From the NCBI GenBank assembly GCA_000434335.1, contig FR878223.1, forward strand, positions 4,420 to 68,419: a stretch of 64,000 nt of DNA, read 5' to 3'. Below, piece by piece: positions 5,011 to 40,650 of the stretch. Position 1 is the stretch's first letter; every line of letters begins with the position of its first letter. Position numbers and translations under genes: made by a program. The notes below the pieces were generated by a model, which searched no databases, was not told the origin of the DNA, and saw only the letters and a program-made list of their open reading frames with translations. Source of the DNA: Clostridium sp. CAG:492. Its GTDB lineage: Bacteria; Bacillota; Clostridia; TANB77; CAG-508.

Positions 5011-5877
5011 ATGGAAAATTTATATAATAAAACAAAATTTATATTAAAAAAATACAATATTTCGGCAAATAAAAGCCTTGGACAGAACTTTTTAATAAAT
5101 GATTCTGTTGTTAATAAAATAGTGGAATCGGCAGAAATAACTAAAAATGATTTAGTAATAGAAATAGGTCCTGGACTTGGAAATTTAACGGAATTTTTAC
5201 TTGAAAAAGCAGGAAAAGTAATAGCTATAGAGCTAGATCAAAGAATGATTGAAATTTTGAATGATAGATTTTCATTATATGATAATTTTGAACTTATTAA
5301 TGAAGATGTATTAAAAGTTGACTTAAATGATTTAATAAGAAAAAATAAAAATTCAGAAATTAAAACTGCTAAAATAGTAGCAAATTTGCCTTATTATATT
5401 ACAACACCTATTATAATGAAATTATTAGAAGATAAATTAGATATAGAAACTATTACAGTTATGGTCCAAAAGGAAGTAGCAGATAGGTTAATTGCAATTC
5501 CAGGTGAAAAACTATCCGGAGCAATTACATATAGTGTATACTATTATGCTACCTCAGAAAATGTTACAATTGTAGAAAATAACTCATTTATACCAGAGCC
5601 GGAAGTTGATTCTGAAGTAATAAAATTAACAATCAGAAAAAATCAACTTGTAAATATACTGAATGAAGAGCATTTTTTTAAATTAATAAAAATAAGCTTT
5701 ATGCAAAGGAGAAAAACACTCATAAATGCTTTAGTAAATGGTGGTATATTAAAAAGCAAAGAAGATGCAAAAAAATTATTTGACGATTTAAAAATGGATT
5801 ATAATACAAGAGGTGAAACATTATCAATTGAAAAGTTTGCAGAAATTTCTAATTATATTGTAAATAACAAAAATTAA
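5011..5877 (+). CDS. rsmA: 16S rRNA (adenine1518/1519-N6)-dimethyltransferase RsmA/KsgA
   Basis: LGQNFL, EIGPGLGNLT (SAM-binding) and NLPYYI motifs. 288 aa. Confidence 0.93.
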   Translation: MENLYNKTKFILKKYNISANKSLGQNFLINDSVVNKIVESAEITKNDLVIEIGPGLGNLTEFLLEKAGKVIAIELDQRMIEILNDRFSLYDNFELINEDVLKVDLNDLIRKNKNSEIKTAKIVANLPYYITTPIIMKLLEDKLDIETITVMVQKEVADRLIAIPGEKLSGAITYSVYYYATSENVTIVENNSFIPEPEVDSEVIKLTIRKNQLVNILNEEHFFKLIKISFMQRRKTLINALVNGGILKSKEDAKKLFDDLKMDYNTRGETLSIEKFAEISNYIVNNKN

Positions 5878-5890
5878 TTTTAGAAAGGAA

Positions 5891-6607
5891 ATGCCTATGA
5901 ATCAGATATTAGTTACAGATAAAATATATGTTACCAATAAACTGAAAAAAAAGAAAAAAATGTATAAGATACAATTTATATTTTCTGTACTTCTTGTGTT
6001 TTTATTTTCTGGATGGTATATATATTCAGAAGTAGAAAAAAATGCTTGTGAAGCTGTTTCACAAGACATATTAAATGAAATATCATTAGATGAAACAGAA
6101 AATGATTCTACAATGAGTGATAGACCATTAGTTGTAGCTTTAGATGATACAGAAGTTGTTGAAAATGAAAGTACAAAAAATGTGCTTGATGGAAAATTTA
6201 CAGATCAAACTGGTAATACATATACATATGAATCAATTTTATCTATTCCAAGTTTAGGTATTGAATACCCTGTACTTTCGGAAACGAGTGAAGAGCTTTT
6301 AAAAATATCAATAAATAAGTTTTGGGGTGGAAGCCCAAATTCTGTTGGAAACTATTGTATAGTAGGTCATAATTATAAAAGTGGAAAAATGTTCGGAAAA
6401 TTATCACAAATGAAAAATGGAGACATAATAAAATTAACAGACTTATCTGGTAATACATTGCAATATAAAGTATATGATAGATTTGTAGTAAATCCTGAAA
6501 ATGTTGCTTGTACAAGCCAAGTTACTAATGGTTTGAAAGAAGTAACCTTAATAACGTGTACAAATGGTGGAAAACAAAGACTAATAATTAAATGTAGAGA
6601 AGTATAA
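5891..6607 (+). CDS. Sortase-family transpeptidase (membrane anchored)
   Basis: N-terminal TM segment, catalytic His context CIVGHNY, Cys motif TLITC, downstream Arg (QRLIIK). The start may be the ATG at 5897 (better RBS spacing). Confidence 0.8.
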   Translation: MPMNQILVTDKIYVTNKLKKKKKMYKIQFIFSVLLVFLFSGWYIYSEVEKNACEAVSQDILNEISLDETENDSTMSDRPLVVALDDTEVVENESTKNVLDGKFTDQTGNTYTYESILSIPSLGIEYPVLSETSEELLKISINKFWGGSPNSVGNYCIVGHNYKSGKMFGKLSQMKNGDIIKLTDLSGNTLQYKVYDRFVVNPENVACTSQVTNGLKEVTLITCTNGGKQRLIIKCREV

Positions 6608-7250: not shown

Positions 7251-8246
7251 TTAATCTTCTTGTGATGATTCCTGTTTTAATTGTTGGGCCCTTTTTTGTA
7301 AAATTCTTTCTTTTTTAGAAAGCTCCCTTTTTAAAGCTTCTTTTTTTTCTGAATCTGTTACAACTTCTTTCATAGCACCTAAACTACTTAATGCTGATGT
7401 TGCATCAAATGGTATAAATACTTTGTTGGCATCTCCATCTGCAATTTCTTTTAAGGCTTCTAAAGATTTTAATTGAACTAGTTTGTCATTAGGATTTGAT
7501 TCCATAACTGCTCCATAAACCATTCTTATTTCTGCAGCTTTAGCATCAGCTACTTGTTTTATTGCTTCTGCTTCACCGGCAGCTCTTCTTATAGCTGCTT
7601 CTTTATCAGCTTCAGCTTCTAATATTGCAGCTTCTTTTTTACCTTCGGCTAATGTAATTGCAGATTGTCTTTCACCTTCTGCTTGAAGGATTAAAGCTCT
7701 TTTATTTCTTTCTGCATTCATTTGTTTTTCCATTGCATCACGGATATCTGCAGGTGGTGTAATGTCTTTAATTTCGACTCTATCTATTTTACATCCCCAT
7801 TGATCTGTTGCTTCATCTAATATTGCTCTTAATTTATCGTTAATAGCATCACGAGAACTGAATGTTGCATCTAAGTCCATTTTTCCGACAATATCACGAA
7901 TTGTTGTAATTGCAAGATATTCAATACCTTTTTTTAATGATTGGATTTCGTAAACAGCTTTTGCTGGGTCTGTAATTTTGTAGAAAACAACTGTATCAAT
8001 TGTAATTGTAACATTATCTTTTGTTATAACTCCTTGAGGTGGAATGTCCATTGTTTGTTGTTTTAAACTAACTACTGATCTAACGTGATCTAAAAAAGGA
8101 AATATAATTGTAAGACCAGCATCTGCTACTTTGTGAAATTTTCCTAATCTTTCGATAACATATACTTCTGATTGTTTAACAACTTTTATTGTTTTATATG
8201 CAATTATTAAAACTAATAAAAGTAAAATAATAAAAAATATAACCAT
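7251..8246 (-). CDS. SPFH/band-7 (stomatin/prohibitin-like) membrane protein
   Basis: N-terminal TM, SPFH core (VVKQSEVYVIERLGKF...), and an Ala/Glu-rich coiled-coil tail. It is paired with the upstream nfeD gene. RBS is aaggagg. Confidence 0.88.
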   Translation of the reverse strand: MVIFFIILLLLVLIIAYKTIKVVKQSEVYVIERLGKFHKVADAGLTIIFPFLDHVRSVVSLKQQTMDIPPQGVITKDNVTITIDTVVFYKITDPAKAVYEIQSLKKGIEYLAITTIRDIVGKMDLDATFSSRDAINDKLRAILDEATDQWGCKIDRVEIKDITPPADIRDAMEKQMNAERNKRALILQAEGERQSAITLAEGKKEAAILEAEADKEAAIRRAAGEAEAIKQVADAKAAEIRMVYGAVMESNPNDKLVQLKSLEALKEIADGDANKVFIPFDATSALSSLGAMKEVVTDSEKKEALKRELSKKERILQKRAQQLKQESSQED

Positions 8247-8303
8247 ATTTTTTCCTCCTTAATTTTTTTCTGCATTATTATAAATATTAATGATAAATTT
8301 TGC

Positions 8304-8771
8304 TTAAACTGTTGCTGATTCTTTTTCAGCTACTTTTGTTTTTTGTGCTGTTGATACTACAGCTTTTACTCCATCTATTGCCGTTATAGTTACTAAAGTA
8401 CCTTTAGGAATTACTTGAGAATCTTCTGTTTTGGCAGACCAAATTTCTGATTCGACTTTTATTTGCCCTTCTCCTGTTATTGGATTAATGTCTGAAATAA
8501 CTATGCCTTCTTTTCCTATTATGGAATAAGCATTTGTATGTACATCTTCTATATCTTTTGTGAATTTTCTTACAAATGGTTTTGTACAAAATATTAGTAG
8601 TATTGATGATATGCAGAATAATGCAATTTGTACTGTTATGTTGTCTGTAAATAAACTGCATACTGATGTTAGTGCTGCACCAATTCCTACCCAAAATATA
8701 AGAAAATCAGTGGGGATAATCATTTCAAAAATCATGAATATGCCAGCTAGGATAATCCAAATTTGCCACAT
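8304..8771 (-). CDS. NfeD-family membrane protein (partner of the SPFH protein)
   Basis: Three or four N-terminal TM helices plus a C-terminal OB-like NfeD domain (GEGQIKVESEIWSAK). It lies immediately upstream of the SPFH gene in the same orientation. Confidence 0.8.
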   Translation of the reverse strand: MWQIWIILAGIFMIFEMIIPTDFLIFWVGIGAALTSVCSLFTDNITVQIALFCISSILLIFCTKPFVRKFTKDIEDVHTNAYSIIGKEGIVISDINPITGEGQIKVESEIWSAKTEDSQVIPKGTLVTITAIDGVKAVVSTAQKTKVAEKESATV

Positions 8772-8887
8772 ATAAATTACCTCCTTTTCTACCTAACAAT
8801 TTAATTATACAATATTTTGGTGTAAAAATAAAGATTTTTGAAAAATATTATTGTATTTTGTTACTTTTTGAGAGTCGTTTTAAAAAA

Positions 8888-10591
8888 TTAGCCCTTTGGT
8901 GTTACATTTATTGTGTTATTGTGTGTAAATATTACAAATCCAGGCTTACTTCCAGATGGCTTTTTTACATATTTTATCAATGTATAATCTACTGGAACGT
9001 TTGATGATTGTTTGGCTTTACTATAGTATGCTGCTATTTGAGCACATCTTATTATAACATCTATTGACGGAGTTTTGCCATGTGTTTGTAATATTGCATG
9101 ACTTCCATGAATTTCTTTTGTATGAAACCAAATGTCTGTTGATTTTGCTAGTTTTGTTGTCAAATAATCATTTTGTATATTATTTTTTCCAACTAATAAG
9201 GTATAATTTTCTATTTTATATTCTATTGGTGTATATGTTTTATCCAATTTTTTATTTTTTTGTTTTTGTTTTGTTACTTTTGTATTAGATTTTAAGTGGG
9301 ACCTTTCAAATAGTGGATTTTCTGATATTTCTGTATAAATTTCATCTATATCAGGAATTGTTTTTGCAGTATCTAATTCATAAATTATACTTTCTAAGTA
9401 GTCTAGTTCTGATTCTGTTTCCTTTTTTTGCTCTGCTATTACAAGTAAAGTGTTTTTTAATTTATTATATTTCTTAAAATAGTTTTTCGCATTATATGAA
9501 GGTGTTTTGTTTGGGTCTACAGGTATATCTATTAATTCATTATTATTGTAATAATTTGGAACTTTTACAATGTTTTCAGTAAATTCCTTGAATTGATACA
9601 TATTCGCTGTTAGTAGTTCTCCATATAGTTTATATGTATCCATGTTTTTGCAATCTGCTTGTTTGCTATTAATGTTTAACAATTTTTTCTTTATTTTTGT
9701 TAACGTTGATAATACTAATTTTAATATATTATTTCTATATGATAAGAAAAGTGAATTGTTTTCTTTTTCTATATAGAAATCGTCTATGAAAAAGTTGGAT
9801 TGCAATGTATCCTTACATTTTTTTTGTGTTATTGTAAAATCTTTTTTGAATGGTTTTAAAGAAATATTTGTTGTTCCAATATTTTCAATTGTTTCGGAAA
9901 TATATTTATATATAATTTTTAGGTTGCTTGTAGTTACAGAATTATCTATGTTACATTCTTCAATAATGCTTTGAATGTACAATTTACTTATTCCTATAAA
10001 AATTTTTGAAATTCCTGCATCTAAGTTAGTTAAATTGCTTGTTAGTTTATAAAATTCGTCAAAAGTCTTTATTGATTTAAAATCAATTTTTGTATTTTCT
10101 GGTGCAGAATATTCGTGTGCAGGTAAAATATCTCTTGATGAATGCTCTTCAATAGATAGGTGTCTTAAACTATCTATTATCATATTATTGTCGTTTGTTA
10201 AAATTATGTTACTGTGTTTTCCCATAAGCTCTATTATTAAGTTTTTGTTGACTAAGTCATTTAATTCATTAAAGCATTCAAGCTCTATATACACAATTCT
10301 TTCAAGTCCTATAGTATAAATTTTTTTTATTTTAGCTCCAATTAAATGTTTTCGTAGAAGCATACAAAATCCTGGAGCATTTAAAGGATTGGGTTTTGTA
10401 TGTGTTGTTAAATTTATTCTATAAGAGTCTGAAGCAATTGAAAAATTAAGAGCGTAGTTAGTTCCATAAGAATATATACCCAAAATAATCTCATTTTTAT
10501 TAGGTTCAAAAACCTTATTAATTTTTCCTCCAATTAAGCAGGTGTTTAATTCTGCTACAATATTACTTGTAACAATACCATCAAATGCCAT
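8888..10591 (-). CDS. rqcH: NFACT-family ribosome quality-control protein RqcH (fibronectin-binding protein A-like)
   Basis: NFACT-N start MAFDGIV..., a central coiled coil, and a C-terminal NFACT-R/DUF814 region (WFHTKEIHGSH). RBS aaaggga precedes the ATG at 10591. The track start at 10609 is likely an extension. Confidence 0.88.
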   Translation of the reverse strand: MAFDGIVTSNIVAELNTCLIGGKINKVFEPNKNEIILGIYSYGTNYALNFSIASDSYRINLTTHTKPNPLNAPGFCMLLRKHLIGAKIKKIYTIGLERIVYIELECFNELNDLVNKNLIIELMGKHSNIILTNDNNMIIDSLRHLSIEEHSSRDILPAHEYSAPENTKIDFKSIKTFDEFYKLTSNLTNLDAGISKIFIGISKLYIQSIIEECNIDNSVTTSNLKIIYKYISETIENIGTTNISLKPFKKDFTITQKKCKDTLQSNFFIDDFYIEKENNSLFLSYRNNILKLVLSTLTKIKKKLLNINSKQADCKNMDTYKLYGELLTANMYQFKEFTENIVKVPNYYNNNELIDIPVDPNKTPSYNAKNYFKKYNKLKNTLLVIAEQKKETESELDYLESIIYELDTAKTIPDIDEIYTEISENPLFERSHLKSNTKVTKQKQKNKKLDKTYTPIEYKIENYTLLVGKNNIQNDYLTTKLAKSTDIWFHTKEIHGSHAILQTHGKTPSIDVIIRCAQIAAYYSKAKQSSNVPVDYTLIKYVKKPSGSKPGFVIFTHNNTINVTPKG

Positions 10592-10808
10592 AATGTACAT
10601 CCCTTTCACAATTAATTTCTTAGATTATATTATATTTTTTTCAATTAGTAAATTTTTTTATGTCTAAATTACTATTATTTAATAAATAAATATTTCAACA
10701 GATGATTGATTAATTTGCGAAAACGGTATAAAATAACCAATATAGAAAACATAGGAATTGGTGAATATACAAATGTAAGTAAAATATATGTGAATAAAAG
10801 TTTATATG

Positions 10809-10824
10809 TATAATACAATTGTAT
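10809..10824 (+). promoter_or_regulatory. -10-like TATAAT overlapping a 12-bp palindrome upstream of the 5-gene operon
   Basis: tataat at 10809-10814. The perfect palindrome atacaattgtat at 10813-10824 lies 18 nt upstream of the ATG at 10842. Confidence 0.3.
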
Positions 10825-10841
10825 ACTAGAAGAGGTGTGAA

Positions 10842-11861
10842 ATGATTTATCCTAAAAACTTAAGTAAAAATGACTATATTGGGGTGATTGCAACCTCAAA
10901 AGGAATATCGAAAGATACTGAAATTTTGAAGTTCAAAAAAGCAAAAGAAAATTTTAAAAGTTATGGTCACAATATAATAGAGTCAAATAATATTATGAAA
11001 AATGATAAAGCAAGAAGTTCTTCTGGAAAAGAAAGAGCTGATGAGTTTTTGAAATTATGGACAGATAAAGATGTTAAAGCAATTATTACTCTAAAAGGAG
11101 GTCAATTTTTAATTGAAATGTTACCTTTTTTAGATAAACATAAAGATATATTAAAAAACTCTCAACCAAAATGGATACAAGGATTTTCAGATACAACAGT
11201 TTTATCATATTATTTAACTACAAATTTTGATATTGCAACAATACACGCTGATAATTTTATGAATTATGGTATGAAACAAATAGGTACATCACAGCTAAAT
11301 ACAATAAAAATGCTAGAGGGGGCTGAGTTTCCGCAAGTATCTTCAGAAAAATACCAAAGTGTACATCAAAAATCAGATATAATTGGAAATTTTAACTTTG
11401 ATAAAAAATGTGAATGGAAGAATTTATATAATGAAGATAAAATATCATTAAAAGGAAGAATTATTGGTGGAAATTTAGAATCAATAACAAAATTAATTGG
11501 CACTAAATATGATAATACAGTAAATTATATTGAAAAATATAAAAATGATGGAATTATTTGGTTTTTGGAGAGCTTTGCATTAAATACAGCTGATGTTTAT
11601 AGTGCATTATGGGAAATGAAGGAAAGTGGATATTTTAAATATGTAAAAGGATTTATATTTGGAAAACCAGCAATGTGTGAAAATGAATATAATATTTCTT
11701 ATGAAGAAACATTAAAAGATGCATTAGGAGACCTACAGGTTCCTGTAATTTATAATGCAGATATAGGACATGTTCCTCCACAACTAGCTATTATAAATGG
11801 ATCTATAGCGGAAATAATAAGTAAAGATGGAAAGGGTATTATAATATGCAAAAAAATATAA
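10842..11861 (+). CDS. Peptidase family S66 (LD-carboxypeptidase LdcA / microcin C7 immunity MccF-like)
   Basis: 339 aa. Nucleophile motif GFSDTT, FLE acid and IGHVPP histidine context typical of the S66 Ser-Glu-His triad. Confidence 0.85.
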   Translation: MIYPKNLSKNDYIGVIATSKGISKDTEILKFKKAKENFKSYGHNIIESNNIMKNDKARSSSGKERADEFLKLWTDKDVKAIITLKGGQFLIEMLPFLDKHKDILKNSQPKWIQGFSDTTVLSYYLTTNFDIATIHADNFMNYGMKQIGTSQLNTIKMLEGAEFPQVSSEKYQSVHQKSDIIGNFNFDKKCEWKNLYNEDKISLKGRIIGGNLESITKLIGTKYDNTVNYIEKYKNDGIIWFLESFALNTADVYSALWEMKESGYFKYVKGFIFGKPAMCENEYNISYEETLKDALGDLQVPVIYNADIGHVPPQLAIINGSIAEIISKDGKGIIICKKI

Positions 11862-12961
11862 TTAACGATAATATGGCTGTAATTACTTTACCAATGAAAC
11901 CACATAGAAAAGAAAAAATAGGTATGATTGTTATTCCATCAATTGCAGATGTGTTGGCCAAAAGAATTGGTGCAAAATCATATTTAGGTGTAAATTTAAT
12001 GGATTCATATGTAAAAAGATCTGATTTTGTTAATGATTATTACAATTTGCTATATCAAATGGATATTGATGTTGATGATGTTTGGGTTGATTCAAAGAAT
12101 GAATCTGAATTATTCTTAAATGTGCAAAAATTAATTGAAAAGGGCTTTATTAAAGAAAAAGAGCTAAAAGTTTTAAGATGTCATTGTGGTGTAATTGATA
12201 TGAAAAGCGGTAGTGCAAATGATTTTGTTACTAAAAGGTCATATATAATGAAAGATGATGGTGTTTATTGTAAAGAATGTGGTGGAAAATGCCAGGATAC
12301 AATTGAAAAGGTTTTGGTTTTTAATGCAAGTGATATTGACTTTAAAAGTAAGGCATTACCATCAAGAATTGCAAAAGATCAACAAGAATTTCATAAAAGA
12401 TTAAAAGATGAAGATATTTTAGTTTCAAGAGTCCGTGACACAAAAGTTCCTGTTTTAGTTAATGGTACAAAATACAATGTAGATATAGATTTTGCCGTAT
12501 TAACATATTTGTCTTGCTTTGATGAAAAACAGAGAGTAATAATAGGTAGTAATCACCATATTTATCAAATGTATATGATGCAGCTTTTACAACAATGCCT
12601 AGGAAATGAAGAAGAAAATTTATATGTAGCGGTACCATATGTGAGACCTCCTGCTGATGTACCATTTGACCTAAAAAAATCTTTGTTTAGTTTAAATAAT
12701 TTATCAAGAGAATCATATATTTTTGGCAGTGCCTTTAAATTTAAAAACACAGTAAATACGTGGTCACCAGACTTATTAAAATGTATAAGAAAACTTACTG
12801 AGGAGGAATCAAGTGAATTATATAAAAAGATGACAACACCTATAACTATGTCTGAAACGGAAAGTTTGGAAAAATACATTAATAATGCTGTAATTAAAAC
12901 AAATATACAAAGAATGTTAAACGAGGTTCGTAGTAAAAATGGTAGCAGATATGAAAAATAA
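11846..12961 (+). CDS. Truncated MetRS-like class I aminoacyl-tRNA-synthetase paralogue with degenerate signature motifs
   Basis: 371 aa. By-eye alignment to the MetRS catalytic core: LP-x7-KIGM-x6-ADVLAKR (in place of HIGH...ADVxxRY), IEKGFIKEK, zinc knuckles CHC...CKEC, VIIGSNHHIYQMYMMQLL (cf. FIGKDIVYFHSLFWPAML), and FKFKN where KMSKS is expected. There is no anticodon-binding domain. It overlaps the upstream gene by 16 nt. Confidence 0.6.
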   Translation: MQKNIINDNMAVITLPMKPHRKEKIGMIVIPSIADVLAKRIGAKSYLGVNLMDSYVKRSDFVNDYYNLLYQMDIDVDDVWVDSKNESELFLNVQKLIEKGFIKEKELKVLRCHCGVIDMKSGSANDFVTKRSYIMKDDGVYCKECGGKCQDTIEKVLVFNASDIDFKSKALPSRIAKDQQEFHKRLKDEDILVSRVRDTKVPVLVNGTKYNVDIDFAVLTYLSCFDEKQRVIIGSNHHIYQMYMMQLLQQCLGNEEENLYVAVPYVRPPADVPFDLKKSLFSLNNLSRESYIFGSAFKFKNTVNTWSPDLLKCIRKLTEEESSELYKKMTTPITMSETESLEKYINNAVIKTNIQRMLNEVRSKNGSRYEK

Positions 12962-13853
12962 TATATGTATAGACATAGGTGGTACATATGTAAAATATGC
13001 TGTTTTTAATAAAAATATATTAAAAAAATATAATTTTGTTAAAACGGATAGAGCAGATATATTAAATCAGCTAAAAAATTTAATAAAAAAAATAGTTAAA
13101 GAAGAGCACTATGATGTAAATACAATTGGAATTTCTATTCCAGGAGCAGTAGACACCGAAAAGGGAATTATAATTCACGCGATAAATTTGAATTTATATA
13201 ATTTTGATATGATAAATTATTTAAAACAATATTTTAATTTTAATATTTTTATAATAAGTGATAGAGATGCAGGTTTAATAGGTTGCTTAAAATCAGAAAA
13301 TTATAAATATAAAAAAAATGTGTTAGGTTTAAGTTGGGGAACAGGCGTTGCTTTGTCAATATTTCACGATAATAAATTGTATAAAAGTACGAATAAATTT
13401 GCTCCAGAATTTGGCCATACATATATTTCTGATAATGAAAAATACATATGTTTTTGTGGAAAAAAGGGATGTTTGAATGCAATATCTGGTGCACAGGCAA
13501 TGCGAAATGTAATAAATGAGTATTTAAAAATTGATGGAGATAATATTGAGGAAAGTTTAAATATTATTAAAAGTAAAGGTGACGAAAATTTAGTAAAAAT
13601 ATTTAATAATTCAATATACTATTTGAGTAAAGCTATAGCAAATATTTATACAACATTAGATCCAGAATGTATATTTATTTGGGGTGGAATGACTGAGGTA
13701 GCACAGTACTTTTATGATGATATAAAAAAGATAGTAAATGATTCAGTGCATAAATCTTTAAGGGATAAAAATAAAATTATTATTTCAAAGTACGGAAGAA
13801 AATCAGCTTTATATGGAATAAATTCAATTGCAAATTATGAAATTGAATTGTAG
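12951..13853 (+). CDS. ROK-family sugar kinase (no N-terminal HTH)
   Basis: N-terminal ICIDIGGTYVK ATP-binding motif and the ROK zinc motif CFCGKKGCLNA. The start is either 12939 or 12951; both overlap the upstream gene. Confidence 0.85.
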   Translation: MKNNICIDIGGTYVKYAVFNKNILKKYNFVKTDRADILNQLKNLIKKIVKEEHYDVNTIGISIPGAVDTEKGIIIHAINLNLYNFDMINYLKQYFNFNIFIISDRDAGLIGCLKSENYKYKKNVLGLSWGTGVALSIFHDNKLYKSTNKFAPEFGHTYISDNEKYICFCGKKGCLNAISGAQAMRNVINEYLKIDGDNIEESLNIIKSKGDENLVKIFNNSIYYLSKAIANIYTTLDPECIFIWGGMTEVAQYFYDDIKKIVNDSVHKSLRDKNKIIISKYGRKSALYGINSIANYEIEL

Positions 13854-13910
13854 GTTTTTTATAAAGTTTATTAAGAACAGGCAATAGTAAAAGTAAGGGG
13901 AAGTTTGTTT

Positions 13911-14573
13911 ATGGATAAAGAAATTAGTGATTTTTTATCAGAATATAACGATGAGATAATTTGCTCTTTTATAATTGGTTCATATGTGTATTCTAATAAT
14001 TTTAATGATATAGATATTGTTGTTATTAGTAAAAATGATTTTTTGCAAAAACATAAAAAAGTAAAAAATATTGAACTTAAAGCAACTTTTTTACCGGAAA
14101 AAATGTTGTATGAGGATTTAAAAAATGATACATATGGAAGTTTTATTTATGGAAGGTTTTTAAATCCTATAATGTCAATAAAGAATTCAGAATATGCTTT
14201 TGATTGTCAAAAAAAAGCTATAAAAAAAGAGTTTAAATATCATAAAAATATAATAGAAGAAAGTACAAAAAAAGAAATTATTAAGAGCTTTATTTTAAAT
14301 AGAGGGCTATATTTTAGCAAATATCTGAAAAATTTAGATGTTATTGAAAATGAGAATAAAAACATAAAGTCTTTTTGTAACATTATAATAAATATATATA
14401 ATGAAATGAATTTTGTTGAAGACAATCAATATACACGTAGTTCAGAGAATATATTCAATTACTGGAAAACAAGGTTTTCAGTAAAAAGCATTCCATTTAA
14501 TTTAAATGATATAATTAAATTATATAATTTTAAATTAAATGAAAATAATATAATAGAAGGGAATTTTGAATAA
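13911..14573 (+). CDS. Pol-beta-superfamily nucleotidyltransferase (KNTase/ANT-like architecture)
   Basis: GS-x10-DIDIVV motif (IIGSYVYSNNFNDIDIVVI) followed by a helical C-terminal half. RBS aagggga precedes the ATG at 13911. Confidence 0.7.
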   Translation: MDKEISDFLSEYNDEIICSFIIGSYVYSNNFNDIDIVVISKNDFLQKHKKVKNIELKATFLPEKMLYEDLKNDTYGSFIYGRFLNPIMSIKNSEYAFDCQKKAIKKEFKYHKNIIEESTKKEIIKSFILNRGLYFSKYLKNLDVIENENKNIKSFCNIIINIYNEMNFVEDNQYTRSSENIFNYWKTRFSVKSIPFNLNDIIKLYNFKLNENNIIEGNFE

Positions 14574-15718
14574 TGGATGATGTTATAAATTTATTTCATA
14601 GAGATATTTTAACATTGCGTTCACACCATTGGAAATACTTTATGAATACATATACAGGATGTAGTTATTGTTGTGCATATTGTCTTAATGCTTATACAAC
14701 TGATTTTTATAAAAAAATAGAAGTAGATAATAAGCTAATAAATAAAATAGATAAAGAGCTTAAAAATTTGGATAAGAAAATTGTATTTTTTGGTTCAAAT
14801 ACAGATCCATATATAAAAGAAGAGCAAGAAACACAATGCACAAGAAAGATATTAGAATTATTTTTAAAATATGAAATTCCAATAACAATTTTAACAAAAT
14901 CTATATTAATAGAGCGTGATATTGACATTTTAGAAAAAATGGCTAAAAAAGATTTAGTATTGGTTCAAACAACAATTACAACAACAGATGAAAAATCTAA
15001 AAAAATAGAGCTAAATGTTCCAAGTACTAATCAAAGAATAGATATTATAAAAAAGATGACAAATAAAGGGATACCAGTTCACATACATTTTTCTCCAGTA
15101 ATACCATTTTTAAATTCTGTAGACGAGATAGATAATTTAATAAAATTAGTTGCAAATGCAGGTGCAAAATGTGTATATTCAAATATTTTAGGAATACATT
15201 CACACGATAATAAATTGTTATTTAATTCATTAAAAAATGTAGACGAAAATTTACCCCAAAAAGTAAGAAGAATATACAAATTGGATGTTGAAAGGGAAAA
15301 TTATATTCATTCACCATATGGAAAATTTATTTTAGAACAAATGAAACCAATAAAAGATGCCTGTTTAAAATATAAAATTGGATATGTAAATGAAATGTTT
15401 CCAGAAGAAACAGATTTGCAGTATTGTGATATGAATAGTAATAAATTTTTTGATAAAGCTTTACCTACCATATATAATATGGTGGATTATTTTAAAGGCA
15501 AAAAAAATCCTATTGATTTTGAAGAATTTTGTGAAGAGTTTTTATATAAATATGCTGATAAAACTAATGATAAAGAGTATTTAACTTACATCGAAAAATT
15601 ATGGAATAGCAATGAATTATTTGAGTTAACCAAAATAAGAAAAGTTGATGGAAATAAATATTTAAGATGTGAAGATTATGAAATAAAGATGGATGATTTT
15701 TGCAAATGGAATACATAG
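14573..15718 (+). CDS. Radical SAM protein (COG1533 SplB / DNA-photolyase-like family)
   Basis: CxxxCxxC cluster motif GCSYCCAYC near the N-terminus. 381 aa. The start overlaps the upstream stop (TAATG). Confidence 0.8.
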   Translation: MDDVINLFHRDILTLRSHHWKYFMNTYTGCSYCCAYCLNAYTTDFYKKIEVDNKLINKIDKELKNLDKKIVFFGSNTDPYIKEEQETQCTRKILELFLKYEIPITILTKSILIERDIDILEKMAKKDLVLVQTTITTTDEKSKKIELNVPSTNQRIDIIKKMTNKGIPVHIHFSPVIPFLNSVDEIDNLIKLVANAGAKCVYSNILGIHSHDNKLLFNSLKNVDENLPQKVRRIYKLDVERENYIHSPYGKFILEQMKPIKDACLKYKIGYVNEMFPEETDLQYCDMNSNKFFDKALPTIYNMVDYFKGKKNPIDFEEFCEEFLYKYADKTNDKEYLTYIEKLWNSNELFELTKIRKVDGNKYLRCEDYEIKMDDFCKWNT

Positions 15719-15774
15719 ATTATTGACCTATTTTTTATAATTTGATACTATAATGCAAGCAAAAGGAGATAAAT

Positions 15775-18021
15775 ATGATTGCAGAAATTATAATGAATAG
15801 TAGTGTAAGAAATTTAGATAGAACATTTGATTACAGTATTCCAATTGATATGGAAGAAAAGGTACATATAGGTAGTAGAGTTTTAGTAAAATTTGGAAAT
15901 ATTAAAGAATTAAAAGAAGGTTTTGTTGTTAATATAAAAGAAAAATCTGAGTTTGAAGTAAAAGATATAGCTAAAGTAGAAGAGCGAGATTTTATAGATG
16001 TTCCAAAAGTAAAGCTAGCCAATTGGATGGCTAAAAGATATTTTTGTAATGTATCAGATTGTATAAAATTAATGTTACCACCAGGAACTGGTACAGATAA
16101 AATTGCTAATAGAGCAAAGGAAAAAACAGAAAGATTTGTAAAATTATCAAAAGAAATAAATGAAATAGAATTTGATATTGAAAATAAAAAAATAAAATCT
16201 GATAAACAAAAAAGAGCCTTAGAATTTTTAATAAAAAATAACGAAATATCATCAAAAGACTTAGAAAATTTTGCAGATGTTTCAACAAGTATATTAAAAA
16301 CTTTAGAAAAAAATGGCCATATAAAATTTTATGAACAAACAGTTGAAAGAAATCCTTTTATACATAAGGTTATAGATAGTAGTTCAAAATTAAATTTAAC
16401 TGATGAGCAAAAATCTGCATATGATGCTGTTGAAGAAGCAATTGATGATTGTATGAACTCAGAGTTTTTATTATTTGGTGTAACAGGCTCTGGCAAAACA
16501 GAAGTATATTTACAATTAATAGAAAAAGTTTTAAATATAGGAAAAACAAGTGTAATGTTAGTTCCAGAAATTTCTTTAACTCCGCAAACCGTAGATAGAT
16601 TTATAGCAAGATTTGGACAAGACAAAATAGCAATTTTGCATAGTAAATTATCTGTTGGGGAAAGATATGACCAATGGTATAAGATAAAAAATGGTGAAGC
16701 AAAAATAGTAATAGGAGCCCGCTCAGCAATTTTCGCTCCTATTAGTGATTTAGGTTTAATAATAATAGATGAGGAGCACGATAGTTCATATAAATCTGAA
16801 ATGACACCGAGATATAATGTAAAAGATGTATCAAGATATTTGGCAAAAGAATATAATGTTCCAATTGTATTTGGAAGTGCAACACCAGATATGGATACAT
16901 TTTACAAAGCACAGCAAGGAGAAATAGAGCTACTAGAGCTTACTAAAAGAGCAAATAATGCAGAGCTTCCCACTATAAATATTGTAGATATGAAACAAGA
17001 GCTTGCAAATGGAAATAGAAGTTCTATTAGTATGAAATTATATGAAAATATAAAAGAAAACATATCTAATAAAAAGCAAACAATTTTATTTTTAAATAGA
17101 AGGGGATATTCTACATTTATCTTATGTAGAGATTGCGGATATGTAGCTAAATGTAAACATTGCAATATTGCTCTAACATATCACATCAAAGAAAATAAGT
17201 TAAAATGCCACTATTGTGGGTATGAAGAAATTCCAAGGGGATATTGTCCAGAATGCAAAAGCAAAAACATAAAATATTCTGGAAGTGGAACACAAAAATT
17301 AGAAGAAGAAATTAATAAAATATTTCCATCTGCAAAAACCATAAGAATGGATGTTGATACTGTAACTAAAAAAAATTCGCATGAAGATATTTTGAATAAA
17401 TTTAGAAATGAAAATATTGATATTTTAATAGGAACACAAATGGTAGTAAAAGGTCATCATTTTCCAAATGTAACATTAGTAGGTGTAATATTTGCAGATG
17501 GTAGCTTAAATATAGATGATTATAGAGCAAATGAAAGAACATTCCAAATTTTAACACAAGTTGCAGGAAGAGCAGGAAGAGGACGAGATAAGGGTAATGT
17601 AATAGTTCAAACATATAATCCAGATAATTTAAGTATTGAATACTCAAAAGAGCAAAATTATAGATTGTTTTATAATACAGAGATAATAATAAGGAAACAA
17701 TTGAAATACCCGCCATTTTGTGATATAATACTAATTGGTTTTAGTTCGGAAAACGAAAAAAATGTAATTGAATCTGCAAGATTTATGTATATGAGTTTAA
17801 AAAATAAAATAATAAACGAAAAATTACAAATCATATTATATAAACCAGTGCCTGCGCCAATTGATAAAATAAAAAATAAAATAAGATGGCGCATAATAAT
17901 AAAATGTAAGTTTAACAATGAGATAATAGAGGCACTAAACACATCACTTAAAGATTTAAATTCAAAAAAATTAAAAGATGTGAAAACAATAATTGATTTA
18001 AACCCAACAAATATGATGTAA
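15775..18021 (+). CDS. priA: Primosomal replication-restart helicase PriA
   Basis: Walker [17 protein letters not shown] box, and the Cys-rich zinc insertion (CRDCGY...CKHC...CHYCG...CPEC). Confidence 0.95.
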
Positions 18022-18041
18022 TAAAAGAAAGGAGAAAAACA

Positions 18042-18509
18042 ATGGCAATAAGAAATGTAAGACTAGAAAATGACGAAATATTAAGAAAAAAATCAAGAAT
18101 AGTAGATGTAGTAGACGACAAAATAAAAGAGCTTGTAGATGATATGATAGAAACAATGCACGCTCACGATGGTGTAGGTTTAGCAGCACCTCAAGTTGGA
18201 ATATTAAAAAGAGTGGTTGTAATAGATTTATATGATGATAAAGGACCATATGTTTTAATAAATCCAGAAATAATAAAACAAAAAGGAGAGCAAGAAGTAG
18301 AAGAAGGATGTTTAAGCTTTCCAAATCAATTTGCAAAAGTAATAAGACCATCAGAAGTAACTGTAAAAGCACTAGATAGAGATGGAAAAGAATATAAATT
18401 AAAAGGAAAAGGATTACTAGCACAAGCAATATCACACGAAATAGACCATCTAGAAGGAATACTATTCGTAGACAAAATAATACCAGGAACAATGGAAGTA
18501 ATAAAATAA
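18042..18509 (+). CDS. def: Peptide deformylase
   Basis: [13 protein letters not shown] and HEIDH motifs. Confidence 0.95.
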
Positions 18510-34701: not shown

Positions 34702-34788
34702 GCCGGTGTGTTGGAATTGGTAGACGAGGCAGACTCAAAATCTGTTGTCAGAAATGGCGTGTGGGTTCGAGTCCCACCACCGGTACCA
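34702..34788 (+). tRNA. tRNA-Leu (anticodon CAA)
   Basis: Cloverleaf with a long variable arm, anticodon loop ctCAAaa, T-arm gggttcgagtccc, and an encoded CCA. Confidence 0.9.
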
Positions 34789-34808
34789 AACTTAATAATT
34801 AAAAAAAA

Positions 34809-34832
34809 ACGATTATAAAAATAATCGTTTTT
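34809..34832 (+). terminator. Terminator after tRNA-Leu
   Basis: acgattat pairs with ataatcgt and is followed by tttt. Confidence 0.65.
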
Positions 34833-34943
34833 ATGCGTGTAATATAATTGTAATATAATTGAAATATTTTTGTAATTGTAGTTTTTTGTAGAAACGTGTA
34901 TAATATTATTAGAAATTTACTTATGATAAAGGAGGAAAGTTGC

Positions 34944-35819
34944 ATGGCTAAAAATAGCAGTGGAAATGTAAGAATGGTAATAACACAAGAAAAAATTCTA
35001 GCTAATATAGAAAAAGTAAAAAAAATGATAAATCCGAATAGTAAAAAGAAGATTGTTAAGCTAGAAGAAGATAGCTATTTTTTAGACTTAATTGCTTCAA
35101 TAAAATCATATCTAGAAGAATATCCAAAAGAGGATACTTTTCCAAGAGATGTATATGATGCTGCATATGATTTAGTAGAATATGCAACTACACAATTTGA
35201 AGATAACACAAAAAAAATTGAGGAACTAATACGTCAAAGAGAAAATAACATAGCATTAGCATCTGAATTAAAGGAAGTACTTACAGCAGTTGAAAGTAAG
35301 GAAACAAACTGGAAAAAGAAAGTCCAAGATTTATCAAATAAATTACCAGATGATATAATTGATACATTAGGAGTATTAGGAAGGGCAAAATCTAAAAAAA
35401 CACAAACTTATTTAGATTCTCTTAATTTAATTAATGTAAAAATTTCAAATTTAGAATCAAATCTTTATATAGAAGTAGATATGGAAAGAATTGAGGATAG
35501 ATCAAAGGCATTGAGTTACATTGGAATTGAAATAGCAGAATCATTAAAAGATATTGAAAACATTGAAAATGTAAAAAATGAAAATATTGAAGAAATTTCT
35601 GAAAACAATTTAAATCAATCAGAAAGTGGTCAAGATCAAATAGATACACAGTATATAGAAGACACAAGAATAGAAGTAAAACCAACTTTATGGGAAAGAA
35701 TAAAAAATATGAAGTTAGTTAGAGGAATAAGATACATTATGAAAATAAAAGTTGTACTAGAGCTACCTGAAATGGCAGAATTACCAGAAAGTACAGAAAA
35801 ACATAATGAGAAAAAGTAA
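34944..35819 (+). CDS. Hypothetical acidic coiled-coil protein (about 291 aa), no recognisable family
   Basis: A strong RBS (aaaggagga) precedes the ATG at 34944. The sequence is heptad-like and Glu/Lys/Asn-rich. The track start at 34896 is probably an extension. Confidence 0.6.
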   Translation: MAKNSSGNVRMVITQEKILANIEKVKKMINPNSKKKIVKLEEDSYFLDLIASIKSYLEEYPKEDTFPRDVYDAAYDLVEYATTQFEDNTKKIEELIRQRENNIALASELKEVLTAVESKETNWKKKVQDLSNKLPDDIIDTLGVLGRAKSKKTQTYLDSLNLINVKISNLESNLYIEVDMERIEDRSKALSYIGIEIAESLKDIENIENVKNENIEEISENNLNQSESGQDQIDTQYIEDTRIEVKPTLWERIKNMKLVRGIRYIMKIKVVLELPEMAELPESTEKHNEKK

Positions 35820-35982
35820 ATATACAAAGCCAGAGCAATAATCTTTTATAGCTTGTTGATAATAATGAGTTATTTAAGTTGTTGCTCATTACTATATATT
35901 GTTTATGCGATTTAAAAATATTAGGTAAAACCATTATAATATTTCATGCTAAATATATAATAAAAAAAATTTAAAATATGTA

Positions 35983-36011
35983 TTGACATATTCTAAATTA
36001 TATTATATACT
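35983..36011 (+). promoter_or_regulatory. Sigma-A promoter for the tRNA pair
   Basis: TTGACA (35983-35988), 17 nt, TATACT (36006-36011), 22 nt before the tRNA 5' end. Confidence 0.6.
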
Positions 36012-36033
36012 AATCACTGTCGATAGGAAATAC

Positions 36034-36110
36034 GCGCCCTTAGCTCAGTTGGTCAGAGCAACCGGCTCATAACCGGTGGGTCCAAGGTTCGAATCCTTGA
36101 GGGCGCACCA
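36034..36110 (+). tRNA. tRNA with CAU anticodon: elongator type, probably tRNA-Ile2 (lysidine-modified), otherwise tRNA-Met
   Basis: Anticodon loop ctCATaa. The G1-C72 pair rules out an initiator. The acceptor stem gcgccct has C4/C5, and the D-arm tagctcagttggtcagagc resembles tRNA-Ile2. CCA is encoded. Confidence 0.85.
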
Positions 36111-36175
36111 AATGAATACTGCTATAGTATCATAACAGTATTCATTTTTATTAAATTAAATAGTTGGGTAGGTGG

Positions 36176-36261
36176 CCGAGTGGCTAAAGGCGGCAGACTG
36201 TAAATCTGTTCTCATTCGAGTACGATGGTTCGAATCCATCCCTGCCCACCAAAGCAAGTTT
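36176..36261 (+). tRNA. tRNA-Tyr (anticodon GUA)
   Basis: Anticodon loop ctGTAaa, long variable arm, T-arm ggttcgaatcc, and an encoded CCA. Confidence 0.9.
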
Positions 36262-37765: not shown

Positions 37766-38353
37766 ATGAAGGAAGAGCAAATACTTAACGCAGCAAAGAA
37801 ATTATTTACTAATTATGGCTTTAAAAAAGTATCTATGGACGAAATAGCAAGTGAAGCAGGAGTAACCAAAAAAACTGTTTATACTTATTTTTCAAGTAAA
37901 GAAGAGCTTTTAAAATATTGCATAAAAGAAGAGCTACAAAATATGAGAAAAATAATTGAAAATGTAGAGTCTAAAAAATTAGATTTTATGGAAACAGTAC
38001 ATCAGGTAATATATAATTTGTTAAAATACAAAAAAAATTGTAAATTCTTAAAAATGCTGTTTAAAGAATCAGAGATATTAAAAAATGAGCAACTAAAAGA
38101 AAATTTAAAAATAGTGGATAAAGAAATTCAAAATTATATAAGAAAACAATTAGAGCTTGCAATTCAAAATGATAAAATTGAAGTACAAAATATAGATATT
38201 ACGACCTTTCTAATATACAAAATGTACATTGCACTAATGATAGACTGGAATGAAGATTATAAAAAATTAGATGAAAAAGAAATAGCAGATAATATATTGC
38301 ATTTCTTAGTAAATGGTTTAAAAAGAAAGGAAGTTGAAAAAGATGCAGAATAA
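37766..38353 (+). CDS. TetR/AcrR-family transcriptional regulator
   Basis: N-terminal HTH FTNYGFKKVSMDEIASEAGVTKKTVYTYFSSKEEL. Confidence 0.9.
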   Translation: MKEEQILNAAKKLFTNYGFKKVSMDEIASEAGVTKKTVYTYFSSKEELLKYCIKEELQNMRKIIENVESKKLDFMETVHQVIYNLLKYKKNCKFLKMLFKESEILKNEQLKENLKIVDKEIQNYIRKQLELAIQNDKIEVQNIDITTFLIYKMYIALMIDWNEDYKKLDEKEIADNILHFLVNGLKRKEVEKDAE

Positions 38354-40505: not shown

Positions 40506-40513
40506 TAATAAAA

Positions 40514-40549
40514 AATACACATAAATAAAGATTTATGTGTATTTTTTTT
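40514..40549 (+). terminator. Terminator after the yhgE-like gene
   Basis: aatacacataaat pairs with atttatgtgtatt and is followed by a T-run. Confidence 0.8.
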
Positions 40550-40650
40550 AGAAACAATTTTTATAAGACATATAATTAATTTCAAAATATTTCTATTGAA
40601 AATCATACACATAAATGATATAATCCAATTCAAAAGTAGAGGTGTTAATT

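Follow-up and report, generated by a model that had tools for sequence, protein, structure and literature searches.

Why would a bacterium keep a serine peptidase, an aminoacyl-tRNA synthetase (aaRS)-like protein, a sugar kinase, a nucleotidyltransferase (NTase) and a radical SAM enzyme together in one block of overlapping genes? The question is raised by a 64,000-nucleotide stretch of DNA from Clostridium sp. CAG:492 (contig FR878223.1, positions 4,420 to 68,419 of the forward strand), here called the window, in which five + strand genes, g1 to g5, lie packed at positions 10842-15718. An earlier description made from the sequence (the original prediction) had read them as a translationally coupled operon, and had guessed at an aminoacylated sugar or nucleotide or, alternatively, at muropeptide or amino-sugar salvage. 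In a computational follow-up, the five genes appear to form one discrete, horizontally mobile operon of ~5.0 kb. Comparison across genomes points to a conserved three-part core within it, namely the g2 protein, which has the predicted fold of methionyl-tRNA synthetase (MetRS), the Pol-beta NTase g4 and the hydrolase g1. That the mobile module makes and hydrolyses an aminoacyl-nucleotide-like compound is a reading to which we would give just short of an even chance.

Packing, conservation and mobility of the five genes

The block comprises the following features.

10704..15721, + strand: whole predicted mobile cassette, leader/promoter region plus five genes (blastn homology limits)
10704..10841, + strand: conserved leader, part of the block common to the window and locus L048; predicted promoter
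10842-11861, + strand: g1 open reading frame (ORF), probable S66 serine peptidase, MccF-like, 339 aa
11846-12961, + strand: g2 ORF, predicted MetRS-fold protein without HIGH or KMSKS, 371 aa
12939 (or 12951)-13853, + strand: g3 ORF, ROK-family sugar kinase, 304 aa, no helix-turn-helix (HTH) domain
13854..13910, + strand: g3/g4 spacer, 57 nt to the ATG at 13911 (51 nt to the TTG at 13905); sole non-overlapping junction
13911 ATG (or 13905 TTG)-14573, + strand: g4 ORF, putative minimal Pol-beta-type NTase, 220 aa from the ATG
14573-15718, + strand: g5 ORF, radical SAM enzyme, 381 aa, related to the PA0069/Rv2578c ('SplB-like') families

All five ORFs were present as originally described, and a reading of the sequence confirmed the 16-nt overlap of g1 and g2 at 11846-11861 (ATG at 11846, TAA at 11859-11861), the overlap of g2 and g3 at 12939/12951-12961 (23 nt from the ATG at 12939, 11 nt from that at 12951) and the TAATG at 14571-14575, by which g4 and g5 share 1 nt. 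The gap between g3 and g4, given earlier as 37 nt, is in fact 57 nt, as the TAG stop of g3 occupies 13851-13853 and the ATG of g4 lies at 13911. The spacer carries a strong ribosome-binding site (RBS; AAGGGGAAG at 13895-13903), and a terminator scan found no terminator-like site in it. Elsewhere in the block the same scan returned no convincing internal terminator, as had been predicted; one weak site inside g5 compares with 0.9 in shuffled sequences. The window DNA has a GC content of ~26%. Homologous cassettes have overlaps of 16 nt, 17 nt and 1 nt (L001) or 16 nt, 17 nt and 29 nt (L005). Because the same overlaps recur in homologous cassettes, the packing is conserved and not a product of chance.

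Homologues of g2 at 55-89% identity were always found within the same five-gene order and with the same overlaps. Among 18 further metagenome loci, all 12 that were long enough to judge had kept the five genes, which thus co-occur outside this genome and in the same order. The rqcH and priA genes that flank the block in the window were found in none of the 18, nor in any of the 20 related loci compared. With blastn, loci L048/L051 matched window positions 10704-15721 at 83.6% identity and L001/L047 matched 10755-15732 at 84.3%, in both cases with sharp ends and different flanks. The cassette of L048/L051 lies between pflB and a small minus-strand gene. Just upstream of this pflB is a stretch that is 96.7% DNA-identical to window positions 38566-40579, which belong to a gene for an ABC-2 family membrane protein (ORF 38334-40505). 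The same ABC-2 gene thus lies near the cassette in L048/L051 and ~23 kb from it in the window. Since this gene is 96.7% but the cassette only 83.6% identical, and the two stand at different loci, a rearrangement or a horizontal exchange of the cassette is indicated. The diverged copies share 73% protein identity in g4, 80% in g3, 84% in g5, 87% in g2 and 93% in g1.

At least three chromosomal sites or upstream contexts could be distinguished: that of the window, those of the L001 and L048 types, which have the downstream side in common, and that of the L005 type. The original prediction had placed the block directly upstream of priA-def-fmt. The position is correct, but the link appears incidental, because the cassette has several upstream contexts and is found elsewhere in close relatives. 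No flanking direct or inverted repeats suggestive of att sites were found around the cassette, and a scan of viral contigs gave no match. The cassette-related loci derive from human-gut metagenomes, and the close g2 relative P0188 (87% identity) was seen on 805 contigs (90%-identity cluster).

Small AT-rich genomes often have compact, overlapping genes, and five unrelated genes could in principle have become adjacent by chance. Such a block would not be expected to move as a whole, sharply delimited and with its gene order kept throughout the related loci, nor would a linkage of g2, NTase and hydrolase recur at 18-30% identity and as gene fusions (see below). Chance adjacency is effectively refuted, and we assign it next to no probability.

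The leader contains TATAAT at 10809-10814, a perfect 12-bp palindrome (ATACAATTGTAT) at 10813-10824, which overlaps this putative -10 box, and a GAGG RBS at 10832-10835, all read from the sequence. Both the promoter-like box and the palindrome were thus found where the original prediction had them. A promoter scan was uninformative in this AT-rich DNA (56 sites vs 49.8 expected). The palindrome was considered as an operator candidate and dropped, as L001/L003 have another perfect AT palindrome (TATATTAATATA) in the corresponding position; an operator and mere coincidence in AT-rich DNA are both conceivable, and we give it no weight. Rfam revealed no riboswitch or other element upstream of or within the block.

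Proteins encoded by the cassette

The g2 protein had no match in Pfam, NCBIfam, PADLOC, PHROGs or the PDB (phmmer), and a close relative is named 'hypothetical protein [Clostridiaceae bacterium]' at NCBI. An exhaustive profile search collected a hitherto undescribed family of 261 representatives (50%-identity clusters) at E<=1e-3, mostly 350-380 aa long, of which g2 is the founding member. An AlphaFold2 model computed from a 72-sequence alignment reached a predicted local distance difference test score (pLDDT) of 93 and a predicted template modelling (TM) score (pTM) of 0.90; this alignment was used in place of one with eight close sequences only, which gave a pLDDT of 52. In a Foldseek search of the PDB, the top 50 matches to the model were all methionyl-tRNA synthetases (E 6e-12 to 1e-9), with TM scores of ~0.65 normalised to the query and 0.36-0.52 normalised to the target. 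The 'MetRS-like' call of the original prediction, for which there is no sequence-level match, is thus well supported by structure. A GluRS-like origin was briefly favoured from alignments. The g2 profile aligned by hhalign to the E. coli proteins GluRS (E 0.009), GluQRS (E 0.02) and MetRS (E 0.085), and the 72-sequence profile matched only GluRS in the PDB (E 0.034); Foldseek placed MetRS clearly first.

In common with the catalytic core of MetRS, a class Ia aaRS, g2 has the Rossmann fold and the inserted four-Cys zinc knuckle (C112/C114/C142/C145), which is present in 71 of the 72 family sequences. It differs from MetRS in undetectable sequence similarity, in the loss of both ATP motifs and in a new set of invariant residues. 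The HIGH motif is replaced by K24-I25-G26-M27 (KIGM), of which G26 alone is conserved family-wide. At the position of KMSKS, the window clade has DLKKS (275-279), and over the 72 family members these columns are unconserved or gapped. An IGSNH segment stands at the place of MetRS IGKDI in a by-eye alignment, and the register of the motif alignment is consistent with the hhalign results for GluRS, GluQRS and MetRS. The new invariant residues (P16, N50, D82, S194, R197, D213, D215 and N236) suggest a remodelled active site. In an 'ISR'-like motif, S194-R195, S194 is invariant and position 195 is Arg or Lys across the family. After the Rossmann fold the model has ~90 helical residues, and g2 is about 130-300 residues shorter than MetRS; it is predicted to lack most of the anticodon-binding domain.

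The description as a truncated aaRS-like ligase scaffold therefore stands as regards the fold and the truncation. The word ligase overstates the case: since HIGH and KMSKS are lost family-wide, canonical adenylation of an amino acid by g2 cannot be assumed. Cyclodipeptide synthases and the regulatory protein HisZ have likewise kept an aaRS scaffold without the canonical activation motifs. Such scaffolds use pre-activated aminoacyl donors or act as the amino-acid-sensing subunit of another enzyme. Cyclodipeptide synthases derive from class Ic (TyrRS/TrpRS-like) enzymes and HisZ from class II enzymes, and neither is associated, as g2 is, with a Pol-beta NTase or with a hydrolase of its own.

The loss of HIGH and KMSKS would also fit a non-activating binder or a user of aminoacyl-tRNA, as the cyclodipeptide synthases are, and thereby a system that works on RNA or tRNA ends. 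In such a toxin-antitoxin-like or stress-signalling module, the MetRS-like protein would bind the acceptor end of a tRNA or the 3' end of another RNA, or would sense amino acid or tRNA charging as a catalytically dead subunit, in the way that HisZ serves HisG; the NTase would nucleotidylate the bound RNA or make a nucleotide signal, and the hydrolase would deacylate or reset it. We consider this unlikely, and the predicted lack of most of the anticodon-binding domain in the 371-aa g2 speaks against it. The neighbourhoods described below bear on it further.

The g1 protein matched Pfam Peptidase_S66 and S66C (E about 1e-26). Among PDB sequences its best matches were MccF-like ('MccC family', B. 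anthracis) and MccF proteins (E 1e-19 to 1e-16), vs E 3.5e-8 for LdcA. The NCBIfam equivalog for LdcA (NF008424) was not reached (45.5 bits vs a cut-off of 378). We aligned g1 with an authentic MccF from plasmid MccC7-H22 (L043, a real mcc operon) and with E. coli LdcA, to which it is 29% and 20% identical, respectively. The catalytic triad is intact, S116/E243/H310 aligning with S118/E243/H311 of MccF, and g1 shares with MccF a ~25-residue loop insertion that neither E. coli LdcA nor the S66 protein of L042 contains. Residues N220 and K247 of MccF, which we take to recognise the aspartyl moiety, are replaced by E213 and L247 in g1. Because they are not conserved, the amino-acid specificity of g1 probably differs from that of MccF. 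The position of MccF W186, a residue that stacks on adenine (PMC8323819), is taken by F184 in g1 (F/Y in the clade), not by Trp. We conclude that g1 is most probably an MccF-type S66 peptidase and not an LdcA orthologue, a refinement of the 'LdcA/MccF-type' assignment made earlier.

The ROK kinase assignment of g3 holds by both Pfam and NCBIfam. The Pfam ROK domain covers residues 9-298 (E 2.5e-44), the ATP-binding DIGGT and the zinc motif CFCGKKGC are present, and an HTH is absent. The best NCBIfam model, ROK_glcA_fam, scored 121.6 bits vs a cut-off of 260, and all equivalogs stayed far below their cut-offs, so g3 seems to belong to no characterised specificity group (glucokinase, NagK, NanK, allokinase and so on). 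None of the cassette proteins reached the cut-off of a characterised orthologue group, and they include no bona fide MetRS, LdcA or glucokinase.

An S66 peptidase beside a ROK kinase could suggest salvage of peptidoglycan or amino sugars, the alternative named in the original prediction. S66 is the family of LdcA, ROK includes NagK and NanK, and the logic of kinase, NTase, ligase and LD-carboxypeptidase parallels known recycling. The S66 enzyme would then act as an LD-carboxypeptidase on muropeptides, the ROK kinase would phosphorylate N-acetylglucosamine or N-acetylmuramic acid, the NTase would make a nucleotide sugar, and the MetRS-like protein would re-attach an amino acid or peptide, as a non-canonical analogue of LdcA, AmgK-MurU and Mpl. 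The MccF-like nature of g1, far below the LdcA cut-off, is at odds with this scheme, and we know of no sugar-1-phosphate nucleotidyltransferase that has the Pol-beta fold.

That fold is assigned to g4 at the level of motifs. The motif GSY-x9-DIDIV is present; G23-S24...D33-I34-D35 and the acidic patch E68-D69 are invariant in nine homologues. Pfam NTP_transf_2 remained below threshold (E 0.029, 15.2 bits vs 21 needed), and PDB sequence and profile searches were empty. Alignment by hhalign to the NTases beside distant g2 homologues was co-linear over three motifs, with E values of 0.003 and 0.0045. The earlier call of a Pol-beta NTase is therefore kept as a motif-level assignment, g4 being probably a minimal enzyme of this type.

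The assignment of g5 as a radical SAM enzyme is backed by Pfam (PF04055, E 1.2e-15, 58.5 bits vs 29.5) and by NCBIfam; the CxxxCxxC motif lies within GCSYCCAYC. Its best profile matches are the PA0069 family (142.8 bits, cut-off 360) and the Rv2578c family (121.5 bits, cut-off 430), COG1533-like families known as 'DNA repair photolyase', and many homologues are so annotated. With these g5 has the radical SAM core in common; it lies far below both cut-offs, and the reference families are themselves uncharacterised. Phage homologues exist (phrog_13321, E 1e-42), and only about 15 full-length relatives at >=28% identity were found. Outside the cassette, the contexts of g5-like genes were heterogeneous and not informative. 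On one contig, that of P0226 (JGI 3300041965), a g5-like radical SAM gene (36% identity) follows an overlapping 207-aa ORF and a Pup-ligase-like gene among many small ORFs; this contig may hold a g4/g5-like pair in a phage-like context.

Partners of the wider g2 family

The neighbourhoods of more distant g2 homologues were collected by context look-ups and from 23 GTDB loci of gut Bacilli/'Tenericutes' metagenome-assembled genomes, the latter phylogenetically clustered and derived from a search with one subfamily (A3); ORFs were called and clustered, and representatives were searched against Pfam and NCBIfam. A GTDB genome scan with the close-clade alignment gave no match, and the A2 alignment was too diverse to seed a scan.

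In ~35 loci a member of the g2 family stands beside a Pol-beta NTase or is fused to one. A single NTase cluster (c1, 380-400 aa) is adjacent to the g2 homologue in 25 of the 30 clustered loci; other Pol-beta NTases have 245-276 aa and a GS..DxD motif (L039, L040 and L042) or 361 aa (L013). Fusions occur in both orders, NTase to MetRS-like in P0116 and MetRS-like to NTase in P0125 and P0119. Because the two are fused in other genomes, the NTase probably works physically with g2.

A third partner is nearly always present. It is an S51 peptidase in 24 loci and in the fusion P0085. The window clade has an S66 peptidase instead, as does L042 in an independent case (its g2 homologue is 18% identical); L039 and L040 have an alpha/beta serine hydrolase, and L018/L019 a RimJ/RimL-type GNAT at exactly the place of S51. 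The linkage of g2, NTase and hydrolase recurs at 18-30% identity. In the S51 partners Ser133 and His173 are invariant, and 18 of 21 sequences have Asp at position 200. A Ser133/His168/Asp196 triad distinguishes MccG from PepE (PMC9239234), and the S51 partners resemble this Asp-type triad of MccG.

Accessory genes vary. A ROK kinase of the same cluster as g3 stands beside a distant g2 homologue in L010, and AAA_33 kinases occur in L013 and L042; NUDIX, HAD, His_Phos and cupin genes were also found. HAD and phosphoribosyltransferase (PRTase) domains occur as fusions too, as in P0065, in which the MetRS-like protein is fused to a PRTase. Between the MetRS-like and S51 genes of L026, L029, L030, L033 (11083-11931) and L037 lies a gene for a radical SAM protein of 282 aa that resembles the adenine-methylating enzymes RlmN/Cfr. 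It scored 153 bits to TIGR00048 over model positions 73-348 only, and its N-terminal 70-residue region is missing. Together, the accessory genes point to a nucleotide or a phospho-sugar as substrate.

Several of these neighbours could be claimed for a system acting on RNA or tRNA ends. RlmN-like radical SAM enzymes and AAA_33/KTI12-like kinases occur in some loci, the partner NTases weakly resemble MntA-type and ANT-type minimal NTases, the PRTase fusion P0065 recalls HisZ-HisG, and the cassette is mobile and fast-evolving. Genes related to tRNA also lie near, with gatB 22 nt upstream in L040 and dtd, leuS and pheS elsewhere; the aaRS-gene neighbours, however, are mostly on the opposite strand and not clearly enriched. 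The N-terminal region of RlmN binds RNA, and it is this region that the RlmN-like enzyme lacks. A ROK kinase and HAD and NUDIX partners suggest a small molecule, and S51, S66 and GNAT enzymes are known to act on small aminoacyl-nucleotide substrates, not on RNA (PMC9239234).

In favour of peptidoglycan salvage, the module has FtsW-like genes at its flanks in five GTDB loci and a penicillin-binding protein fragment in L042. In most of the family, however, the hydrolase is S51 and not S66, and ROK is absent there; the scheme has no place for the radical SAM, NUDIX, PRTase and RlmN-like partners, and the cassette belongs to the mobile accessory genome, not to the core. We regard this explanation as very unlikely, and the muropeptide and amino-sugar alternative is thereby disfavoured.

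In a third explanation, the cassette would make no toxic product and would serve purely in resistance or salvage, with exogenous aminoacyl-nucleotide or peptidyl-nucleoside compounds of the gut being hydrolysed by S66, nucleotidylated by g4, phosphorylated by the ROK kinase and sequestered by the MetRS-like protein as a decoy. MccF and MccG homologues that stand alone confer a basal level of resistance (PMC9239234). Kinases, NTases and acetyltransferases are classic antibiotic-modifying classes, one partner NTase weakly matches ANT(4'), the cassette has no exporter or precursor gene, and the abundance of P0188 and the human-gut origin of related loci would be in keeping with such a role. A decoy, however, should have retained the pocket of HIGH and KMSKS, to which inhibitors bind, and resistance cassettes do not usually include a radical SAM enzyme. 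The NTase/MetRS-like fusions and the pairing of the two within the family of 261 representatives indicate one joint reaction and not parallel detoxifiers. Overall, this explanation seems improbable to us.

The wider family shows signs of mobility as well. Large serine recombinases directly flank the module in six loci (L019, L029, L030, L031 and L033, cluster c4; L064, 2566-4161), a hint that integrative elements often carry it near one of their ends. The NTase-MetRS-like fusion of L064 comes directly after a gene for a TobZ/NodU-type carbamoyltransferase. The genes of L040/L041 (7001-10144) have 14-24 in-frame TGA codons each. If UGA is translated as Gly, the NTase regains its GGS motif and the MetRS-like protein its NTG motif, which suggests that the carrier uses genetic code 25 (or 4). 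The L040 module begins 22 nt after gatB, and by motif its third gene resembles an alpha/beta hydrolase-NUDIX fusion.

In L013 a Cupin_2 gene (5838-6260) lies immediately 3' of the distant g2 homologue, followed by genes for a Pol-beta NTase, an AAA_33 kinase and His_Phos_1. A cupin with a MetRS-like protein is the architecture of the hydrazine synthetases that form N-N bonds (e.g. Spb40/Tri28 type). These are MetRS-derived enzymes of small-molecule biosynthesis; they adenylate in an ATP-dependent manner and aminoacylate a non-tRNA hydroxyl (PMC11705231). In contrast to them, the g2 family lacks the ATP motifs, its partner is a Pol-beta NTase, and the window contains neither a cupin nor an N-hydroxylase.

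A candidate route to an aminoacyl-nucleotide

MccF (S66), MccG (S51) and MccE2 (GNAT) are published inactivators of toxic aminoacyl-nucleotides, which they cleave at the carboxamide bond or acetylate at the amino group (PMC9239234). The same three families, MccE2 being of the RimL type, fill the third-partner slot of the module. The likeness extends to detail, as g1 has the MccF triad, the loop insertion and an aromatic residue, though Phe and not Trp, at the W186 position, and the S51 partners have MccG-like Ser/His/Asp. Because these families interchange beside a MetRS-derived protein and an NTase, and because the accessory genes act on nucleotides, riboses or adenine, the most economical reading is that the module builds up and removes a conjugate of an amino acid with a nucleotide or nucleoside. 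This switching of partners strengthens the guess of an aminoacylated nucleotide, comparable to Trojan-horse inhibitors, in the original prediction; the function itself is still a matter of inference.

If the module does make such a conjugate, the NTase and the MetRS-like protein together would join the amino acid to a nucleotide or nucleoside. The NTase would supply the nucleoside triphosphate chemistry that the aaRS scaffold no longer performs, and the scaffold would supply binding of amino acid and ribose, or aminoacyl transfer, its invariant DxD/SR/N residues perhaps serving as a new site of catalysis or ligand binding. The ROK kinase and the radical SAM enzyme may tailor the sugar or base part. 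The S66 hydrolase would cleave the aminoacyl-nucleotide bond, and so either protect the host's own aaRS or turn the compound over. Since the cassette is without an exporter, mobile and fast-diverging, the product more probably acts inside the cell, as a toxin, a signal or a molecule of conflict, than as an antibiotic that is secreted.

Several points weigh against this proposal. Every functional step in it is guilt by association. The g2 protein, without HIGH and KMSKS, could be non-catalytic, a sensor or regulatory subunit like HisZ. The NTase assignment of g4 rests on motifs and weak pairwise E values (0.003-0.03), and the replacement of N220 and K247 in g1 has been noted. S66, S51 and GNAT are large, widespread families that also have other roles; GNAT took the place of S51 in one evolutionary event only (L018/L019), the S66 protein of L042, without the MccF loop, looks LdcA-like, and the clustering of the 23 GTDB loci has to be kept in mind. 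Neither an MccB/ThiF enzyme nor a transporter or exporter was found among the five proteins and their neighbours, and no precursor peptide was seen, small ORFs not having been searched for. The window cassette thus differs from microcin C loci in lacking the MccA peptide (with the same limit as to small ORFs), the ThiF-type adenylyltransferase MccB and the major facilitator superfamily exporter, and for want of MccB/ThiF, precursor peptide and exporter it is not a microcin C system. The PADLOC 2023 models gave no match at E<=0.01 except one (E 0.0092) without a passing domain. With no PADLOC match and none in viral contigs, a role in defence is unsupported. Literature searches found no description of the g2 family or of the gene combination.

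On the 3' side of the cassette, priA-def-fmt follows after a 56-nt spacer with its own promoter-like site. Upstream on the opposite strand lie rqcH/NFACT (RqcH, ribosome quality control) and an SPFH/Band-7 and NfeD gene pair (7251-10609, - strand), common genes outside the cassette. A Leu/Phe-rich ORF of 164 aa antisense to def (17998-18492, - strand) is almost certainly a spurious shadow ORF. Three tRNA genes (34702-36248) are the only Rfam matches at gathering level in the whole window.

A broader version of the aminoacyl-nucleotide reading seems to us possible but rather doubtful. It would see in the g2 family a widespread and hitherto undescribed route to aminoacyl-nucleotide-type molecules, in which an aaRS scaffold without ATP motifs depends on a Pol-beta NTase, separate or in some cases fused, and comes with a built-in 'antidote' of the MccF/MccG/MccE type. 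This would be a non-ribosomal, non-ThiF counterpart of the microcin C warhead pathway. Human-gut Firmicutes and UGA-recoded bacteria would carry it on mobile cassettes, and it would serve within the cell for toxin/immunity, defence or signalling.

The g2 family represents a class of aaRS paralogues that has no Pfam or NCBIfam model and no name beyond 'hypothetical protein', yet is common in human-gut metagenomes. Its pairing with NTases and with families of aminoacyl-nucleotide-inactivating enzymes yields a testable hypothesis, namely that such compounds are made or sensed in a way not known before. If true, it would reveal a further logic by which Trojan-horse-type aaRS inhibitors or aminoacyl-nucleotide signals are synthesised, and would explain the abundance of 'stand-alone' MccF and MccG homologues. 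It would also mean that an aaRS fold, once HIGH and KMSKS were lost, has evolved another active site.

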